Positions 40,210 through 48,842 of a stretch of 64,000 nt of DNA are shown piece after piece. The stretch is from Nitrospirota bacterium (GTDB lineage Bacteria; Nitrospirota; Nitrospiria; Nitrospirales; Nitrospiraceae): NCBI GenBank assembly GCA_963701855.1, contig CAVPBK010000014.1, positions 1 to 64,000 of the forward strand, given 5' to 3'. The notes under the pieces were generated by a model. That model was given only the letters and a program-made list of their open reading frames with translations. It was not told the origin of the DNA and did not search any database. The translations under genes were made by a program, and so were the position numbers. Numbering within the stretch: position 1 is the stretch's first letter; every line of letters starts with the position of its first letter.

Positions 40210-41573
40210 ATCAGCAGATACAACAGCGCGATGGGTATAGCCAGCTTGCGTTGGACCTTTTGGCCAAGGCAAAACGCGGTGGGGCGACGGAAGCGGACAT
40301 CATTGTCGCTGACGGCGAAACCTTTTCGGTGCAAGTCCGGTTAGGTGCCGTCGATCGCCTCACGAAAGCGCGGGAGAAGCATCTCGGTTTGCGCGTGTTT
40401 GTCGGAAAACGCTCAGCCAGTACCTCCACCTCCGATTTTTCAGCGGACTCATTGGATCAGCTCGTTGCCGAGACCTGCACCCTGGCGAAGGCTGTCGTAG
40501 AAGATCAGGTATCCGGCTTGCCGGCGGCGGATCAAATGGCGGGAGAGAAGCCAGATTTGGATCTCTACGATCCCACCCGACTCAATACAGAACAGCAAAT
40601 CGAATTGGCCAAACGTGTCGAAGCTGCTGCTATGTCTACGGATGAGCGTGTGACGAATTCGGAAGGGGGCGACTTCGATTCCTCTTCTGGCCGCGTAGTG
40701 CTGGGCAATAGTCACGGATTCTTGGGTGAGTACCAGAGTTCCAGTTTCTCCATGTCAGTATCGCCTGTTGCCACCGATCCGGAGACCGGCGCCATGCAAC
40801 GGGATTCCTGGTACGCGGTGCAACGGAAATTTGCCAAGCTGGACTCCCCGGAGGCGGTGGGACTGGAAGCGGCACGGCGGACGATCCGAAAGCTCGGGGC
40901 GAGGAAAGTGGCAACCCAACAAGTTCCTGTTGTCTTTGATGCAGAAACAGCCGGAAGTCTCATGGGGAATCTTTGCAGCGCAGTGTCGGGGTATGCCCTC
41001 TATAAAGGGGCGTCATTCCTGGCCGGCCAATTAGACAAATCGCTGGCTCCGGAGTATGTCACGGTTTACGACGATGGGCGAGTAGTCGGAGGTCTGGGCT
41101 CTCGACCGTTTGATGGCGAAGGTCTGCTGACCAGGAAGACGACGGTGGTGGAGCGAGGAGTATTGAAGAGCTACCTGCTCGATACCTACTCAGGGCGGAA
41201 GCTCGGGTTGGCTTCGACCGGCAACGCTTCCCGTAGTGTCGGCGAGAATCCATCGGTCGGTCCCACGAATTTCTATCTCGCCCCAGGGGCAAAGACCGCG
41301 CAAGACATTATCAAGACGGTGAAACAGGGCTTGTATGTCACGGACCTCATCGGTTTCGGTATCAACATGGTGACTGGTGATTATTCGCGGGGAGCTGCTG
41401 GGTTTTGGATCGAAGGGGGCGAGTTGGCCTATCCCGTGGAAGAGATCACGATTGCGGGCAATCTGAAAGACATGTTTGCGGGAATAGAAATGATCGGCAG
41501 CGATCTTGTGTTTCGCGGACGCATTGCCAGTCCGACTGTGAAGATTACAGAGATGATGGTGGCGGGAAGCTAG
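40206..41573 (+). CDS. pmbA: PmbA/TldE protein
   Basis: PFDGEG, TGDYSRGAAG, EITIAGNL; ATGA overlap with tldD. Confidence 0.93.
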   Translation: MNQQIQQRDGYSQLALDLLAKAKRGGATEADIIVADGETFSVQVRLGAVDRLTKAREKHLGLRVFVGKRSASTSTSDFSADSLDQLVAETCTLAKAVVEDQVSGLPAADQMAGEKPDLDLYDPTRLNTEQQIELAKRVEAAAMSTDERVTNSEGGDFDSSSGRVVLGNSHGFLGEYQSSSFSMSVSPVATDPETGAMQRDSWYAVQRKFAKLDSPEAVGLEAARRTIRKLGARKVATQQVPVVFDAETAGSLMGNLCSAVSGYALYKGASFLAGQLDKSLAPEYVTVYDDGRVVGGLGSRPFDGEGLLTRKTTVVERGVLKSYLLDTYSGRKLGLASTGNASRSVGENPSVGPTNFYLAPGAKTAQDIIKTVKQGLYVTDLIGFGINMVTGDYSRGAAGFWIEGGELAYPVEEITIAGNLKDMFAGIEMIGSDLVFRGRIASPTVKITEMMVAGS

Positions 41574-41674
41574 GAGCAGATGGCAGATAGCGCATAGCTG
41601 ATGGTTCGGATGCGAAGCGCAATGCTTTCCCATATGCCCTTAGCCATAAGCTCTTCATCCCAGCGAGGTAAGCC

Positions 41675-42385
41675 ATGGCCGAGTCAATCAGGGAAACGTT
41701 GGTCCAGTATCCCGGCGACAAGGTGACGATGCGGGCCTATGTCGCTGCCCCGCAAACCAAGGAGCGACGCCCAGCGATTATCGTGATTCAGGAATGGTGG
41801 GGACTGACCGAACATATCAAGGGCGTGGCAAGGCGCTATGCCGCTGAGGGGTATGTGGCGGTCGCTCCGGATTTGTACTCCCGATTAGGGAACGCCCTCA
41901 CCACCGATCCCGGCGAGGCAGGCAAGTTGATGAATACGCTCCAGCAGGAAGATGGACTCAAGGATCTCAATGCCACCGTTGCCTATCTCAAGTCCGTTCC
42001 TGAGGTCGACGCCACGAAAATCGGAGTGACCGGATTCTGCATGGGCGGATCCTATGCGCTCATGCTGCCTTGTGTGAACAAAGATATTAAGGCCGCCGTG
42101 CCGTTCTATGGTCAGGTGCCGAATCCCGATGCGCCGCTGCAACAGCTGTCGGCTCCTGTCCTCTACCTCTATGGAGAGGATGACGGCTGGATTACCAAGG
42201 CGGATGTTCAGCGGCTCGCGGCAGGCTTCAAGAAATACAATAAGTCCGGCGAGATCAAAACCTATCCCGGCGCGCCCCATGCTTTTTTTCGAGATACAGA
42301 TAAGACCGTCTATCGTTCTGAGGCAGCCCAAGACGCCTGGATTCGCGCCACAGCATTTTTCAAACAGCACTTGAGATCGTCGTAA
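41675..42385 (+). CDS. Dienelactone hydrolase family protein
   Basis: QEWWGL, GFCMGG nucleophile, HAF. Confidence 0.92.
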   Translation: MAESIRETLVQYPGDKVTMRAYVAAPQTKERRPAIIVIQEWWGLTEHIKGVARRYAAEGYVAVAPDLYSRLGNALTTDPGEAGKLMNTLQQEDGLKDLNATVAYLKSVPEVDATKIGVTGFCMGGSYALMLPCVNKDIKAAVPFYGQVPNPDAPLQQLSAPVLYLYGEDDGWITKADVQRLAAGFKKYNKSGEIKTYPGAPHAFFRDTDKTVYRSEAAQDAWIRATAFFKQHLRSS

Positions 42386-42402
42386 GAGGAGTTAGAAGTT
42401 TT

Positions 42403-42858
42403 ATGCCGCTTGATGTCGAAATCGGAAAGACCATGCTCCAGTTGATTACGTCGCGATACGACGACCGGCATTGGCGCAAGAGGATAGAAAAGACCTTGGG
42501 TTTGCCTCAATCCGGTGTCGGAGATCCTGCGCAACAGCAGATATTCATGTATCTCAAGATCGGTCTCAAGGCCTACAAGTCGCGCCGGGCCGATCCTGAC
42601 TCCTGGATTATCGGAGGGTATGCGACGAAAGAAATTATTGATCGAGCCAAGTTTCAACCTCAGCTGGTCGGTCCAAACGTGACGAAGGATGATGTGGCAT
42701 TTCTCGGCAGCGATCCGGGGAAAGAGATCGACGAAGCCTGGTGGGATGAGATGCTGGTGTCCTGGTTCGATGTGCCGGAAGAAGAAAAGCCTGCCGAAGA
42801 AGAAGCTGCCGAGTCCACCGGTTCAGACCCCTCGTTCACCATCAAAGCGAAAGTCTAG
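42403..42858 (+). CDS. Hypothetical protein
   Basis: GAGGAG RBS, same strand directly after the hydrolase, acidic tail. Confidence 0.75.
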   Translation: MPLDVEIGKTMLQLITSRYDDRHWRKRIEKTLGLPQSGVGDPAQQQIFMYLKIGLKAYKSRRADPDSWIIGGYATKEIIDRAKFQPQLVGPNVTKDDVAFLGSDPGKEIDEAWWDEMLVSWFDVPEEEKPAEEEAAESTGSDPSFTIKAKV

Positions 42859-43156
42859 GACCGACGCCCGCTGCTGCTTCCGCTCTTGCCAGCAGGGGGT
42901 GGTCGCCCGGGAGGATGCGCGCCGCCGCAAGACCTCCTGAATCACCCAACTACGCCTTACTCGCTCGAAGCCTGTAAACTCGCCGAGCCTCAAACAATAC
43001 AGGCTTCGCCGTTGCAGCGGAAGAGCAACGGCCGCGAGTTGCGGCAAGTTGTGTCCCGATTCATCCGGTCATCGGCGGCAACGATCCTCCCGAACGACTT
43101 TGAGGAATAAACTGAGCGAGCTTGAAAGGATTTATAGAGACAGATGCGAAGCGTCG

Positions 43157-43253
43157 GCTCAACGCTTGAACTCAGCGGCACTTGAGGCGGCGTGCGTGGC
43201 GCGGCAGCGCCATGCGTGACGAGTCAAGTGTCCGCTGCAGCGATTTGTTCGGC
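43157..43253 (-). other. Integron attC site (97 bp)
   Basis: Minus strand GCCGAAC-AAATCGCTGCAGCGGACACTTGA...TCAAGTGCCGCTGAGTTCAAGC-GTTGAGC: R'' and R' cores, long imperfect palindrome with unpaired bases. Confidence 0.8.
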
Positions 43254-43327
43254 AGCATATGGAAATGGTCTATCAAGAGAATATGGCCGTTCGCGTAGAA
43301 CTCATTTTGGGGATGTGGAATGTCCTA

Positions 43328-44824
43328 TCAGTATGCCCACGCATTCTGCTTGAACAGTTCGACTTCTTCGGGTTGTACCACTTCTTGAGCATCAGACGCT
43401 GACCCCACCACAATCTTTGATACCTCTAACGCGCACTTGAGGTCATCGCTTGCGATCCAATCGTTCTCCCACAGATCTGGGGATTGGCCATTCACGATTT
43501 GACATATCGGCTCATCACTAGTGAACGTCATACCGACTGCTTTCGGCTGTGTTACTCGTTGCAACCATATTTCAAGGTAGCCGTTATACGGCACTCGGGC
43601 CATCTTTTTGTGAACCTTCTTCCACAGTCGAGCTTTCTCTTCGGTTGAGGCAAGTGAGATGAGGTGGCTCAGGATGGCCGCAACAGCGGGGAAAGTGGCC
43701 GGCGAAACGAACGCAATGTCCGCTGCAATCGCAACTTGCACCTCAAGATCGTCAGGATTTTCAGTTTGCGTCGAAATTTTGGTGTGAAACTCGCTAACCA
43801 AGCGTCGGAGCGCTCCACTATTCGGGAAGCGCTGCCCGAATGAATGTAGTCTTAGAAGTTGTTTCTGAATCGTTTTTGCATTTGCATCTCCTAGGTCTTG
43901 TAGATCAATGCCTGCCAACTTGTCCGGTTTGATTGATCCCTCGACGACATTCCTGCATAAGAAAGTCTTAGCTACGCCTAGCTTCATTCCGACTGACCGC
44001 AATTTATCACTGATAATTTTCAGTATCTCTTCGGCTCGATCGTCGCTATTGGAAAATATCTTGTAATCGTCGCGATATCTGAGTATCCGAAAATCGGCCT
44101 GATCGTCTAGAGCGGAGTTGATTTGTTGGTCAACATACCCAAGAACGATCTCCGCCACAAAGTCCATCAAGACAGAACCCTGAGAAATGCCGTTGGTCTG
44201 TCCGTACCTGCCTGCTTGGATGTGTGAATCGATTTTTTCTCCGAGAAGAGAGTTTTTCCCTTTTTCCCTCTTGGCTTCTTCAAGGCCGTGGAGTGCCCAG
44301 GAAATGCTGTGTGTATATAGAGATCCGTAACAGTCTGTTACATCGGTGTGAAGAATGTGACTGAATTCCAGAGAGTAGACTAGAGATCGCTGCTCGACAC
44401 TTTGCCACCAGCTCTTAATCTGTGTTGCCACATCTGCTTGATTGTCTAGCGACATCACTGGAGCGCTGCAACAGTCAACAGCGCCATCTTCAAACTCAGA
44501 TAAGCGTTTAGTGATATGTGTCCAATTCTCCGGGGCGCAGATTACATTCACCAAAGAGACATAAAGCGCCGGGTGCATCAGCTCATATGGACGCCACGCG
44601 AACTTGCCATCCTTATTTGCGATAAAGTTGTAGTTTACGTTTGGCAAATCCTTAGGGTTCTTCGACTTAAATGCAGCATAGTTCCCCCCTTTCAAGACCG
44701 TCTCGACGTCGTTCAGAATCGGCTCGAAGCTGATGTAGCTAGGCAAGTCACCATTGAAGTAGCTACTCTCCTTCAAGAAGTGCTTTCTTGCTTCTTCGTT
44801 TGAAAGCTCAACTAATCGCTTCAT
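43328..44824 (-). CDS. Reverse transcriptase, UG/Abi (defence-associated, DRT-like) class
   Basis: HTDVTDCYGSLYTHSISWA, NGISQGS, RYRDDY catalytic motif, helical C-terminal extension; AT-richer than flanks. Confidence 0.88.
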   Translation of the reverse strand: MKRLVELSNEEARKHFLKESSYFNGDLPSYISFEPILNDVETVLKGGNYAAFKSKNPKDLPNVNYNFIANKDGKFAWRPYELMHPALYVSLVNVICAPENWTHITKRLSEFEDGAVDCCSAPVMSLDNQADVATQIKSWWQSVEQRSLVYSLEFSHILHTDVTDCYGSLYTHSISWALHGLEEAKREKGKNSLLGEKIDSHIQAGRYGQTNGISQGSVLMDFVAEIVLGYVDQQINSALDDQADFRILRYRDDYKIFSNSDDRAEEILKIISDKLRSVGMKLGVAKTFLCRNVVEGSIKPDKLAGIDLQDLGDANAKTIQKQLLRLHSFGQRFPNSGALRRLVSEFHTKISTQTENPDDLEVQVAIAADIAFVSPATFPAVAAILSHLISLASTEEKARLWKKVHKKMARVPYNGYLEIWLQRVTQPKAVGMTFTSDEPICQIVNGQSPDLWENDWIASDDLKCALEVSKIVVGSASDAQEVVQPEEVELFKQNAWAY

Positions 44825-44846
44825 AGGCTTCAGAATTATTTTGATC

Positions 44847-44869
44847 GCATAACGCGGCGTGGGTTATGT
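44847..44869 (-). other. Cassette core site GTTATGC within a 23-bp hairpin ACATAAC-N9-GTTATGC
   Basis: 22 nt upstream of the RT ATG. Confidence 0.55.
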
Positions 44870-45267
44870 GTTCAACGAAAGAATGTAGTTGCCTTACCAT
44901 GCTATTTGTGTGCGCAGATGGTGGGGACATTCTACTTTTTCGAGCATGACGAGTCTATCTCTAGTCAGAGCCTCGGATGGAAGGGATGGGCACGGAGGCT
45001 TTCGCCATGGCGTCATATGCCGATTGCTTGCCAAACCAAGTGCAGTGGCGTCGTTCTTCCGGTCCGGTAAGGCGCACGGCCAACAATGAAGCGCCCATTT
45101 GCAGTCTTGCGTCATCGCATCATGGTGAAGCCGGAGCTGTCCGCCCTTCGTCAGCCGAGACATTTTTCTGCCCGACCAAGTCAGAAAGGGTCGCTCCGAA
45201 AGATGAGGGGTGGTGGCTCTGATAGGTACCGGCTGTGGTGGCTCGATGTGGAGTGTAAAGGGTTGGG

Positions 45268-45564
45268 TTACAGCAAGTAACGGTCGATGTTGAGCGCGCC
45301 ATGGAAAACGCCGAGAATATCGATCGCACCGGAATCTCTGATTATATAAGCGATTCGATAATGCCCATGTAGAAGAATGCGGATGTGTCGGTCTGCTCGC
45401 TGCCAGTAGCGATAGCCTGACTCGGGGAATTCTCTGAGGACTTCTGCTTTCTGGTAGAGCGTTTCTACGGTGCGATAGGCAGCGGCGGGGTTATCTTGCG
45501 CAATATAGTCGTGGATGTCGCGCAGCCATCGTTCGGCTTCGACTGTCCAGGTCAGCTCCCCCAT
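45268..45564 (-). CDS. RelE/ParE family toxin
   Basis: LTWTVEAERWLRDIHDYIAQDNP...FPESG...YRIAY...ILGVFHG. Confidence 0.88.
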   Translation of the reverse strand: MGELTWTVEAERWLRDIHDYIAQDNPAAAYRTVETLYQKAEVLREFPESGYRYWQRADRHIRILLHGHYRIAYIIRDSGAIDILGVFHGALNIDRYLL

Positions 45565-45737
45565 GTCTTGATGCGGCGCCCCATCTCTTCATGGCTGATC
45601 GTTCTTCGGGTATCGGAGTCCGCAAGCCCTCGTTCGATCATTCTGGCAAAGGCCAACTCCCGAAGAATTTCGTCGTAGGAACTGTCGTCTGGCTGGTCTT
45701 GAAGGATTTTGGCGATCTGTTCTTTTGCGGAAGGCAT
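45552..45737 (-). CDS. Cognate antitoxin
   Basis: Small acidic ORF overlapping the toxin start; IERGLADSD..RTISHEE. Confidence 0.82.
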   Translation of the reverse strand: MPSAKEQIAKILQDQPDDSSYDEILRELAFARMIERGLADSDTRRTISHEEMGRRIKTWGS

Positions 45738-45855
45738 GATCACCTCGTTAATTGAGATAACGATTCACTGACCCTACGCTCACAAGCTTAGCGGTAAGCC
45801 TCTTGATTTACAAGCAACCAACTGGATGTACCGATCATTTCACGGACGGCGGTTT

Positions 45856-46497
45856 CTAGCCGAAGAGATCCATTTGAGTCGGCTGCGGCGGTTCGATGTT
45901 GAGGGCTGGAGCGGCTGGCGTTGTGGATTCGGCTGGGGTCGGTTGAGAATGGCGGTCGAGGAATTCTCTTAACTTCTTGAAGTCTTCCTTGAGTGGTTCG
46001 AGCATGCTGCCTTGGTGCAAGGCTGCGGCTGGATGCAGTAAGGGGAAGAGGACGAAGTCTTTCAAGTAGAAGGCCTGGCCGCGAACCTTGGTAATCCCCA
46101 CCTTCCGTTCCAGTAATGTTTGCGTCGCCCAATTCCCCAACGTGCAGACTAGTTTGGGGTGGATCATCGCGATCTGTTGCATGAGAAATGGTTTACATGT
46201 CTCGACTTCATCCGGCTCCGGGTCGCGGTTATTCGGAGGCCGGCACTTGATCACATTGGCGATGTAGATGTCGCTGCGTGACAATCCAGCTGATTGTAGG
46301 AGATCGTTCAAGAGTTTTCCTGCAGCCCCGACAAACGGTTCCCCTTGCTGGTCCTCATGGAAGCCAGGCGCTTCCCCTACGAACATCACGCTCGCATGCG
46401 GATTTCCCACACCAAACACCACTTGGGTTCGGCCCATCTTCGCGAGCTTGCAACGTTGGCAGTTGTGCAGAGACTTGCCGAGTTCGAGGAGAGTCAT
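45856..46497 (-). CDS. udg: Family 4 uracil-DNA glycosylase (Fe-S)
   Basis: CQRC, GEAPG, PFVG, KCRPP, HPAA. Confidence 0.93.
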   Translation of the reverse strand: MTLLELGKSLHNCQRCKLAKMGRTQVVFGVGNPHASVMFVGEAPGFHEDQQGEPFVGAAGKLLNDLLQSAGLSRSDIYIANVIKCRPPNNRDPEPDEVETCKPFLMQQIAMIHPKLVCTLGNWATQTLLERKVGITKVRGQAFYLKDFVLFPLLHPAAALHQGSMLEPLKEDFKKLREFLDRHSQPTPAESTTPAAPALNIEPPQPTQMDLFG

Positions 46498-46627
46498 GAT
46501 GGTGAAGGGGGCCGGTGAAAATTTCAAAGGATTTTAGGCGGGCCGACTTTTCTTGTCAATGGAAGGGAAACGTGTGAAAAATGGTTGCGCAGACTGCCAT
46601 GTCTGTATGGAGCCAAAGGAGGACATC

Positions 46628-47284
46628 ATGCCATTCATAAAACGGCTCGTAGTCGGATTTTTTGTCTTCACGATGAGTGTAGGCGCGGCCTGGGCTGCTG
46701 AACGAGGGTATCAGCTTGTCGCCAGCAAGGACAGCAAGCTCTGCGCAAGAGCGCTGGAAGCGTTTCGTGAGGATGTGGACGATCGATGGCGGCTGCGATA
46801 CCAGCACGAGATCTTTCGGCAGATTCCCTGGAAGCCGGTCGAGTTGAAGGGGCAAGGGCCAAAAACGAGGCATTGCTCGAGTCTCGATAAAGCGGTATTT
46901 GATTTGGATAATGATGGGCAACCGGATTTGGTGGTCAAGACAACGTTCTGTATGAAGGGGAGTCCGAGCGACAGTTTCTATATGTTTCCTGCCAATAGCG
47001 CTGTTCTTGAGCAAGCCAATTGGCAGGACTTGTCGCCTCTGATGGCGACGCCTGATAAGTTCGAGCGGACGGGCGGGGCCTATCCCTTGACGCAACTTCC
47101 TATTGAGGAAACAGGCGTGAGCCGGACGACATTGGCAGGGGTCTTTACAGTTCAACCCTTCATGGTGGACGAGAGCGCGTACGTTAGTCTGACGGATGGG
47201 CGTGCTGAATGGACCGTGATCGCGCAATACCGAGGCAACGGACGTTTCGAGGACCTTTGTTACCTTCATGCGGCGGCAAAGTAG
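46628..47284 (+). CDS. Secreted hypothetical protein
   Basis: AAGGAGG RBS, signal peptide ending AWA, FDLDNDGQPD Ca-binding-like loop. Confidence 0.7.
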   Translation: MPFIKRLVVGFFVFTMSVGAAWAAERGYQLVASKDSKLCARALEAFREDVDDRWRLRYQHEIFRQIPWKPVELKGQGPKTRHCSSLDKAVFDLDNDGQPDLVVKTTFCMKGSPSDSFYMFPANSAVLEQANWQDLSPLMATPDKFERTGGAYPLTQLPIEETGVSRTTLAGVFTVQPFMVDESAYVSLTDGRAEWTVIAQYRGNGRFEDLCYLHAAAK

Positions 47285-47495
47285 GGAATTGCCTATTCCG
47301 ATCTATATCCCTTGGCGTTAGACAGATATTGCGCAACGCGTTGATGCTCGATATTCCATGCAGTGCCCGGGCGTGGTCGCTCGGGCTTTTGGCGTCTGGG
47401 CCAAACGGAGAAAAGTTGCTCTGGTTGTAGAAGTGGTTTTCGTTCACTAGACTCGCCTTTCCCGCCAATCTCGCGTGTCTCGCTCTGCGATCCTG

Positions 47496-48842
47496 TTAGC
47501 GGTGCGTGATTGCATCGGCGCAGCGGTTGCCGCTGACGATGGCGCTTTCGAGGTTGGGTGGCCATCCTGTGTCGGTCCAACTACCAGCCAGCAGCAAGTT
47601 GGCAATGGGACTGCGTTGGATGGGTCGATGTAATTTGGCTCCAGGCTTGAGTGAGAGGATGGCGTTGGAGATCGTTCGGCATCGGGTCGCTGCAATCCTG
47701 CGGTCGGGCGTCAGAAGTCCCCACGATTTGAGCAGGTCAGGGATAGCGATATCAAGCTGTGAGTCAGGGCGAGCCTGATCGAATTGACTGTCGGTGGTGA
47801 TGAGGGAGAAGGCTGTGCGATCAGGCGCTGCCGCTGTCGCAAGTACCAAGTGAAAGGATGTGTCACCCAGCAAGATGAGGCGAGGAGTGGCGCAGGGTTG
47901 CTCGACATGCACATGAAGGTTTGTGCTGTCGATCGATCGCAATTCCACGAGTTGTTGAAAATAGGCGTAGCGGGTTAGCCATCGTTCTGGAAGCAGGGAC
48001 GTGAGCTGTTGCGGAGGCAGGGCTGTCACATACCAATCGGCTTGCAATAAGGAACCATCTCGCAGCAAGACGCCGGAGATACGGTCTTGTTCGTAACGGA
48101 GTTGTGTCGCCTCAGTATTGTGCAAGATGGCGGCGCCCTCCTGCATCAACACCTCGCTGATCGGCTGTACGAAGCAGGTCTGAAGCGAGTCCTGCACGAC
48201 CGAGATGCAGCTATCGGGATGAGTGCTGAGGAACAAGGGCTTCATCGAGCGCACGAAGGCATCGGCGGACATCGTGGCGAGACCGTTGCCGGTCAACCAT
48301 TGCGCGAGAGGATTCCAGACGACCCGACGCGTCTGCGCACTTTGTCCGATCGAAGTAAGCCATTCATCGGCGGTGCGTTGCTCCAGATCGGCAGGCAGCT
48401 CTGCATCGCCTTCCCACAGCTGCTCCACCCATGATGCCAACCGCCACCGTTCATTCCAGGGAATGCCTGCAAATCTCAGGAGGTTTGCCCAGGTGTGAAG
48501 AGGAGCGGGGAAGGAGGTGCGTGGGTAATGAACGAAAGAGCCATCAGGGAGGCGAAATTCTAGCGGGATAGCAATTTTTTCCGGCTGCTGTGGACTGGAA
48601 TGCAGCGAATGTAGCAATGCTTGTGTCGCGTGATGGCAACCGAGGATAGTGAAGGGCTCAGGGTCATTGTGAGGGTCTTCGCCTATGAGGGCTCCTCCAA
48701 GCAGGGGGCGCCGTTCGATGACTGTGACGCGATAGCCCTGGCGGGTGAGGCGGTAGGCGGCGGTGAGACCGGCCAGGCCTCCTCCAAGAATCGCGACGGA
48801 CTGGGGGTTAGGGGACCTCACGAGGATCGGGTGCGAAACCAC
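47496..48842 (-). CDS. hpnE: HpnE-like FAD-dependent hydroxysqualene dehydroxylase
   Basis: GGGLAGL Rossmann motif, LAGSWTDTGWP..LESAIVSG; coupled to hpnD. Confidence 0.8.
   Translation of the reverse strand: MVSHPILVRSPNPQSVAILGGGLAGLTAAYRLTRQGYRVTVIERRPLLGGALIGEDPHNDPEPFTILGCHHATQALLHSLHSSPQQPEKIAIPLEFRLPDGSFVHYPRTSFPAPLHTWANLLRFAGIPWNERWRLASWVEQLWEGDAELPADLEQRTADEWLTSIGQSAQTRRVVWNPLAQWLTGNGLATMSADAFVRSMKPLFLSTHPDSCISVVQDSLQTCFVQPISEVLMQEGAAILHNTEATQLRYEQDRISGVLLRDGSLLQADWYVTALPPQQLTSLLPERWLTRYAYFQQLVELRSIDSTNLHVHVEQPCATPRLILLGDTSFHLVLATAAAPDRTAFSLITTDSQFDQARPDSQLDIAIPDLLKSWGLLTPDRRIAATRCRTISNAILSLKPGAKLHRPIQRSPIANLLLAGSWTDTGWPPNLESAIVSGNRCADAITHR

Follow-up and report, generated by a model that had tools for sequence, protein, structure and literature searches.

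Abi-P2 is a family of reverse transcriptase (RT)-like DNA polymerases whose classical genes are reported to reside in P2-like prophages (Figiel et al., PMC9508834). According to the same source, the protein is trimeric and forms dimer-of-trimers hexamers in the crystal, nucleic-acid-free preparations of the enzyme carry out template-free DNA synthesis in vitro, and a Y61F variant fails to polymerise DNA while Y46F is active. We analysed a 64,000-nucleotide (nt) stretch of DNA from a Nitrospirota bacterium (assembly GCA_963701855.1, contig CAVPBK010000014.1, positions 1 to 64,000 of the forward strand), hereafter called the window. It carries an open reading frame (ORF) for an RT of 498 amino acids (aa) followed by an attC site. 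We consider this locus probably to be a single-protein anti-phage Abi-P2 polymerase, with a putative role in defence, carried on an integron cassette that is now stranded, and probably immobile, in a Nitrospira-type chromosome.

Abi-P2 is a solved family, and both cassette-borne defence and cassette insertion outside att sites have already been published. Anti-phage genes on integron cassettes were reported by Kieffer et al. (10.1101/2024.07.02.601719) and Darracq et al. (10.1101/2024.07.02.601686), integron-cassette defence genes have been reviewed (PMC13434031), and integrase is reported to insert cassettes at non-att genomic sites (10.1101/2022.09.11.507474). We found no paper linking Abi-P2 with integrons; the terms "reverse transcriptase", "DRT" and "AbiP2" are absent from the main texts of the Kieffer and Darracq preprints, whose supplements may list Abi-P2 or DRT matches.

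A predicted Abi-P2 polymerase

The original prediction, made from the DNA letters alone, described a UG/Abi-type RT with the motifs YRDD, NGISQGS and YTHSISWA, a helical C-terminal domain and AT-richer DNA. All of this was borne out. The translation holds LRYRDDY, QTNGISQGS and YTHSISWA, residues ~293-490 of the predicted model are almost entirely helix, and the guanine-plus-cytosine content is 0.45-0.52 over positions 43300-44950 against 0.54-0.60 in the flanks. The subtype that it had left unassigned is Abi-P2, one of the lineages it had named, according to PADLOC, the 7R08 structure and Foldseek.

Using the PADLOC profiles, we found that protein residues 1-495 matched positions 4-487 of the 489 in the AbiP2 profile (PDLC03744) with an E-value of 4.3e-195 and 647 bits. 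The next profiles scored far lower (RT_UG14 166 bits, Drt6 154, Drt4 132, AbiK 97), and in Pfam the RVT_1 core alone was recognised. NCBIfam models stayed below their cut-offs: 43.2 bits against 300 for group II maturases, 25.9 against 235 for retron St85 and 122 against 450 for Drt4, with the Drt3b and AbiA models likewise far under theirs. These low family scores, together with the lack of an associated RNA match in Rfam, agree with the earlier view that this is not a retron, group II intron or diversity-generating retroelement RT.

Structure comparison pointed the same way. PDB entry 7R08, the Abi-P2 of Escherichia coli prophage P2-EC30 (orf570), matched by sequence over query residues 1-491 (E 9.6e-79). 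An AlphaFold model made from 35 homologues had a predicted local distance difference test (pLDDT) score of 90.1 and the bilobal Abi-P2 fold, comprised of an RT palm and fingers without a thumb and a C-terminal helical solenoid. In a Foldseek search the top six matches were the six chains of 7R08, with template modelling (TM) scores of 0.82-0.86, followed by DRT4, UG15, DRT6 and AbiK at 0.50-0.64; DRT2 and DRT9, which are bound to non-coding RNA (ncRNA), reached 0.30-0.37. The catalytic motif Y250-R251-D252-D253 aligned with Y282-R-D-D of 7R08, and Y30 (in LPSYISF) aligned with the priming Tyr61 (in LPAYINF) in the N-terminal fingers loop. In the 35-sequence alignment R251-D252-D253 and Y30 are invariant and Y250 is at least 90% conserved, and the protein keeps every invariant residue. 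Because the family profile, the 7R08 match, the fold, the YRDD motif and the priming tyrosine all fit, the protein is an Abi-P2 family member on every feature that can be examined in silico.

Compared with the Abi-P2 of P2-EC30, the protein thus matches over its full length in sequence and fold, with the same thumbless palm and fingers, solenoid, YRDD motif and tyrosine in the same loop, and both are single-gene systems. The two differ in that identity is only ~30% in the structural alignment, the first residue of the protein here corresponds in position to residue 32 of the crystallised chain, and the gene lies on an integron cassette in an environmental nitrite-oxidiser-type genome rather than in the variable region of a P2 prophage. 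The UG/Abi class of protein-primed, template-independent polymerases also includes AbiK of Lactococcus lactis, DRT4/UG15 and DRT6. These were the next-best profile and fold matches, yet much weaker than Abi-P2, and their helical domains differ. By homology to Abi-P2, the protein would form trimers or hexamers, DNA synthesis would be primed on its own Y30, and the product would be single-stranded DNA made without a template or ncRNA. When a phage infects, this synthesis would lead to abortive infection. Enzymatic activity, expression and phage defence in this host are what we infer.

An integron cassette and its boundaries

The gene had been proposed to end 74 nt before a well-formed 97-bp attC. 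We searched for attC sites with two covariance models. Model R1, which contains the R and L helices, was built from nine attC sites beside IntI genes in genomes G038, G089, G043 and G004 (contig C104); none of these sites adjoins an RT gene and none comes from the RT relatives that were later scanned. (Genomes of the same genus are coded G###, 85 in all with this genome as G000; loci are coded L### and sequencing runs X#.) Model R2 was built from 50 sites, none from the window, and some sites of RT relatives were used in its training. Over both strands of the window, R1 gave a single match, at exactly the proposed coordinates 43157-43253 on the minus strand, covering the full model (1-72) with 41.8 bits and an E-value of 2.6e-7. 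The same site was the sole match of R2 (44.5 bits, E 5e-9) and of a rule-based scan for the layout of R and L boxes. When R1 was run with its filters off over 41500-47500, the next best match had merely 8.2 bits (E = 1). Rule-based detectors were specific and too insensitive for counting (5 of 45 in relatives), so the covariance models were used instead.

Read on the minus strand, the site consists of an R'' box GCCGAAC (43253-43247), a 5-nt spacer, the L'' arm, a variable hairpin top, the L' arm, a 6-nt spacer (TCAAGC) and an R' box GTTGAGC (43163-43157), with the crossover between G43163 and T43162. Two extra unpaired bases in the L'' arm, G43238 and A43231, are spaced as in the attC sites of the genus. 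The DNA folds at -34.8 kcal/mol on the plus strand (z -2.99) and at -29.0 on the minus strand (z -2.04). The RT ORF lies upstream of the site and in the same orientation. These observations demonstrate that the RT gene is the cargo of a genuine integron cassette and that its attC is canonical. A second attC suggested at 42944-43054 by a crude scan had no support from either covariance model and is part of a dispersed repeat.

Comparison with relatives showed integrase-type recombination at this site, in line with the claim that the gene moved as a cassette: a neighbouring cassette is present or absent exactly at the G|TT crossover. G004 shares the RT segment (window 43161-44908) at 95% identity and has a further 757 bases inserted exactly at 43161/43162. 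There the RT attC has GTTAGGC at its end, after which come a 203-aa ORF without a Pfam family (L010 2697-3308, plus strand, contig C77) and then an attC-like site starting GCCTAAC, which is the complement of the first bases of this second cassette. This arrangement of boxes is an integron cassette signature; the attC of the second cassette has a degenerate R' and was not called by the covariance model. Sequencing runs were compared as DNA contigs aligned to the locus; the RNA runs X20-X24 contained few or none of the words sampled from it. Run X3 carries both cassettes, the loose ends of its contigs lying at 43161 and 43164, and a contig of X4 is continuous over 42902-44908 in the single-cassette form seen in the window. 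The second cassette at 43161-43164 is thus present in G004 and X3 and absent from the window, X1 and X4.

At the other end, the original prediction had placed the cassette start at a GTTATGC core site 22 nt before the gene. This heptamer is present (minus strand 44852-44846, 21-22 nt before the ATG), but it is internal to the cassette. It was rejected as the start: it lies inside a stretch 95% identical to G004 that runs to 44908, and the 7-bp mini-hairpin at 44847-44869 in the leader reached only 8.2 bits (E = 1) with the attC model. Contigs of X2, X3, X4 and G004 cease to match the window at 44908, beyond which G004, X3 and X4 continue into the complement of GTTCGGC. GTTCGGC is exactly complementary to the R'' box GCCGAAC of the RT attC, and in G004 the resulting start, G|TTCGGC, lies ~95 nt before the ATG. 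Eight relatives (L042, L044, L045, L049, L068, L069, L070 and L075) have GTTCGGY 30-32 nt before the ATG, and GTTCGGY precedes the ATG in 11 of the 51 close relatives with at least 120 nt upstream. The R'' box is GCCGAAC in 11 of 19 attC-linked loci, and eight of these 11 also have GTTCGGY; the pairing of the two was found in G004, X3, X4 and seven further relatives. The cassette is G|TTCGGC, leader, ORF and attC. Homology of the window copy ends at 44908, ~11 nt before that start, and is followed by flank DNA shared with G009 and G018 that begins at 44924. Because of this, the window copy is 5'-truncated, ~11 nt short of the cassette start and without an upstream partner site. The coordinates are collected in Table 1.

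The retained leader may bear on expression. Relatives with long leaders (G004, which is L057, and L037, L040, L041 and L064) share with the window a motif of TTGAAC, ~17 nt and a T/A-rich hexamer that looks by eye like a promoter -35/-10 pair; a consensus scan did not call it. The gene is possibly expressed from this leader or from a promoter-like site in the flank at 44957-44929. A terminator scan of the locus found one terminator-like site, within chance expectation, and did not call the attC hairpin.

The cassette lies in a variable hotspot. When 30 relatives were searched at the DNA level, the interval from ORF151 to a uracil-DNA glycosylase gene (window 42792-45859) proved to be just ~110-125 bp long in G016, G011, G013 and G003 and held other cargo of 1-6 kb in G009, G012, G014, G015, G017 and G018. 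Because the cargo of G012 and G014 has attC sites of its own, in the same orientation and at the same place, the hotspot behaves as a small cassette array without an integrase and not as an isolated insertion. In G012 and G015, the last cargo with an attC is likewise followed by the segment 43115-43152. The cassette would have been placed between the dienelactone hydrolase/ORF151 pair and the uracil-DNA glycosylase gene by an integron integrase that acted in trans. The likeness to published cassettes inserted at non-att sites is that an attC-bearing cassette lies in a chromosome without an adjacent IntI; here the original target site is unreadable because the 5' junction is eroded.

Table 1. 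Coordinates of the cassette and its borders in the window.
Feature	Positions	Strand	Evidence
Non-coding left flank of the cassette site, conserved beside ORF151 in G004, G010, G012 and G018	42859..43156		DNA comparison
attC, 97 bp	43157..43253	-	Covariance models R1, R2
3' untranslated spacer from stop codon to attC, 74 nt	43254..43327	-	Sequence
Predicted Abi-P2 family RT-like DNA polymerase ORF, 498 aa, intact	43328..44824	-	Profile, structure and fold matches
Cassette 5' leader as retained, 84 nt	44825..44908	-	95% identity to G004 up to 44908
Junction; the cassette's own 5' end is gone (~11 nt including the TTCGGC half-site)	44909..44923		Homology breakpoints of relatives

Spread of the cassette lineage

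Relatives of the RT were sought by scanning one genome per species, which yielded 172, and 80 loci were kept: 53 close (62-96% identity) and 27 distant (35-47% identity). At E <= 1, R1 gave 46 matches, every one of them on the strand of the RT; 22 of the 53 close loci and none of the 27 distant ones contained a match. Among loci with sufficient downstream DNA, R1 placed an attC no more than 250 nt after the RT in 15 of 45 close loci and in none of 21 distant ones. R2 gave 54 matches at E <= 0.1, again all on the RT strand, and 20 close loci with an attC within that distance, as read from the table of matches. In nine loci, ~35 nt separate the end of the RT match from the start of the attC; in the remaining loci this distance ranges from 5 to 97 nt.

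We built a FastTree phylogeny of the 68 intact proteins after dropping 12 of the 80 loci for stops or truncation; the support values are those of FastTree only. The close group formed one clade (support 100) with 12 phylum labels, and all 17 attC-linked rows fell inside one subclade of 33 rows (support 93). Two loci labelled Planctomycetota and Nitrospirota (L068 and L069) have identical RT proteins and attC arrays, which reflects either very recent transfer or a binning error.

Within the genus, the RT was found in 3 of 85 genomes (G000, G004 and G057), and both G004 and G057 have an IntI. In G057 an attC lies 35 nt after the RT and is followed by three further co-oriented attC matches. IntI above the cut-off of 265 bits (profile TIGR02249) was present in 6 of the 85 genomes, and beside these genes are arrays of small co-oriented ORFs separated by canonical attC sites. 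In this genus, as on contig C10 of G038 (L025 7280-11373), the integrase and the cassette ORFs are on one strand, with the array downstream of intI. The usual integron layout is divergent, and a same-strand layout is known for some "inverted integrase" groups.

From these distributions we see even chances that one Abi-P2 sub-lineage was captured once as a cassette and that the unit of RT and attC, with its GCCGAAC/GTTCGGC pair, has since passed among at least 12 phyla, including genomes that lack an integrase. If so, Abi-P2 in environmental bacteria would travel mainly on integrons rather than on prophages, and the long leader would be an adaptation that lets a stranded cassette be expressed outside an integron. 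Bacteria under 12 phylum labels have one such cassette in common, at 62-96% protein identity, which is a clear case of the integron-mediated spread of putative immunity far beyond the clinical and Vibrio integrons examined to date. Like the known phage-defence cassettes, the BRiCs of mobile integrons and those of the sedentary chromosomal integrons of Vibrio, the one described here is compact, attC-bounded, promoter-poor and exchangeable. It differs from them in being long for a cassette (1.75 kb), in having a lone attC outside any integron and in belonging to a lineage under 12 phylum labels. It would add an RT-type defence gene to the growing list of anti-phage functions on integron cassettes, and the locus documents a small integrase-less cassette hotspot in nitrite-oxidiser-type genomes. 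The relatives provide compact, diverse natural Abi-P2 variants for structure-function work and reveal no new mechanism.

State and surroundings of this copy

It had been noted that no intI lies in the window, and we found none. Across the genome, 0 of 19 TIGR02249 matches reached the cut-off, the best scoring 80.8 bits. The genome retains just two short C-terminal remnants of IntI (C6:756709-756876 and C6:177955-178097), located 1-2.5 kb from attC matches. Their identity to the IntI of G038 is 47% over 60 residues and 67-77% over 46. Genome-wide, the attC model gave seven sites at E < 0.001, an eighth at E 0.00103 and 11 at E <= 1. Matches other than the RT site lie at C6:754530-756876, C6:175491-178097, C13:80065-81557, C6:859862-860527 and C14:91496-91586. 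The attC clusters near the IntI remnants are decayed integrons. The picture is of a genome that once used integrons, lost its integrase and keeps scattered cassettes, including that of the RT. The locus itself has a single attC without IntI or attI and so is not a complete integron.

Several observations weigh against the proposed origin, spread and function of the cassette. By R2, an attC follows the RT in only 20 of the 45 close loci that could be judged, so many relatives either have lost the cassette form or never had it, and the phylum labels of contigs from metagenome-assembled genomes can be wrong. In the window a TTRRRY start complementary to the site's own R'' box was not found, the half-site being missing, and the attC model detected no upstream attC with filters off over 41500-47500. 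The promoter scan found no convincing promoter inside the cassette; on the minus strand it called one consensus promoter-like site, the one in the flank at 44957-44929, against 2.4 expected by chance. No intact IntI was found in the genome, which is 97% complete. Frameshifts or stops occur in the RT of 6 of the 80 loci (G004, L053, L064, L065, L070 and L077), which are either decaying cassettes or assembly errors; in G004 the RT copy (L010 994-2497) is split into two frames. Mobility of this copy is thus unsupported, with the 5' half-site, an upstream attC and IntI all missing. The proposal that the gene was moved by integrase recombination accordingly stands for the past and not for the present: because the 5' end is lost, the attC is the sole one in the window and an intact IntI is missing from the genome, this copy has probably ceased to be mobile.

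Some of these points would also suit a decaying relic, in which the gene is still open yet silent or useless in its host and was left behind when the integron system was lost. The truncated 5' end without an upstream recombination site, the short IntI remnants, the lack of a significant promoter call and the decay of other copies, namely the frameshift in the closest (G004, 95-96% identical) and the stops in five other relatives, are what such a relic would display. Against this, the ORF is intact over 498 codons with all alignment-invariant residues kept, including Y30 and the RDD of the catalytic motif, and the leader with its conserved motif could carry a promoter of its own. Run X1 contains near-identical DNA in the same arrangement, and sequencing runs from 13 studies include the RT segment. 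Weighing both sides, we regard a relic as unlikely and favour a preserved Abi-P2 gene on a stranded cassette.

A dependence of the RT on an ncRNA, as in DRT2, DRT9 and retrons, would place that RNA in the 84-nt leader, the 74-nt trailer or a transcribed attC hairpin. This copy and a few relatives do have leaders of 72-95 nt with a conserved motif, and attC would fold into a stable hairpin as RNA too. The original prediction had dismissed an upstream ncRNA on the ground that the cassette boundary leaves no room for it. That argument fails for this copy, because the leader is at least 84 nt long and not 22, but independence from ncRNA is still the best reading on other grounds. It is favoured because eight relatives have just 30-32 nt from the cassette start to the ATG, the trailer is ~35 nt in nine loci, an Rfam scan of 42000-46500 at E <= 1 returned only snoR9 (20 bits, E 0.15), which we took as chance, and Abi-P2 free of nucleic acid is reported to polymerise without a template (PMC9508834). 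The closest solved fold is moreover that of Abi-P2 and not of DRT2 or DRT9. A required ncRNA is therefore highly improbable.

That the hairpin is a mere terminator or genomic repeat and that the RT came by a prophage, a defence island or a group IIC-attC intron is largely refuted and scarcely credible: classical Abi-P2 genes are reported from P2-like prophages (PMC9508834), the hotspot holds dispersed repeats and no IntI is nearby, but the attC model matches the exact coordinates and nowhere else in 64 kb, the hairpin is not followed by a T-run and was passed over by the terminator scan, the G004 and X3 breakpoints fall on G|TT, the RT attC R'' is complementary to the cassette start in eight relatives, no phage genes are among the neighbours (dienelactone hydrolase, uracil-DNA glycosylase and ParE instead), and there is no group II intron RNA match, the maturase model giving 43 bits against 300. 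Group IIC-attC introns also bring an RT gene beside an attC, but here intron RNA domains are lacking, the RT is not of the maturase type, and it lies inside the cassette, upstream of an uninterrupted attC.

On its left, the stranded Abi-P2 cassette is flanked by TldD/PmbA-like ORFs, a dienelactone hydrolase (41675-42385) and ORF151 (151 aa), which belongs to no Pfam family. On its right, a ParE toxin gene and a small partner upstream of it (45268-45743) precede the uracil-DNA glycosylase (45856-46527). The toxin belongs to the ParE family (minus strand, Pfam E 3.5e-14), and its 63-aa partner has no Pfam match. Copies of the pair, ~80% identical, lie on other contigs in G005, G008, G016 and G017, indicating that the pair is mobile; the attC model, run over 41500-47500 with its filters off, found no attC beside it.

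Repeats occur around the cassette site. Just upstream of the truncated cassette end, on the plus strand, is a dispersed element of ~200 nt (44968-45166) that has several copies per genome in the genus (copies L117-L124 and L011). Its consensus fold has a closing helix of ~35 pairs and inner hairpins, one with a UUCG-type loop, and compensatory changes occur in 13 of 58 predicted pairs. It has no Rfam match, shows no link to the RT in other phyla, and may represent either a small structured RNA or a miniature inverted-repeat transposable element with long inverted ends. In the left flank, the block 42902-43124 contains nested inverted repeats and is conserved beside ORF151 in several relatives. 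Further matches to this block lie elsewhere in G011, G018, G009, G014 and G012, and it may be a second dispersed element. Farther to the right, a repeat of ~44 nt (47452-47495) has many copies across the genus, including three more in this genome (C5, C6 and C11).

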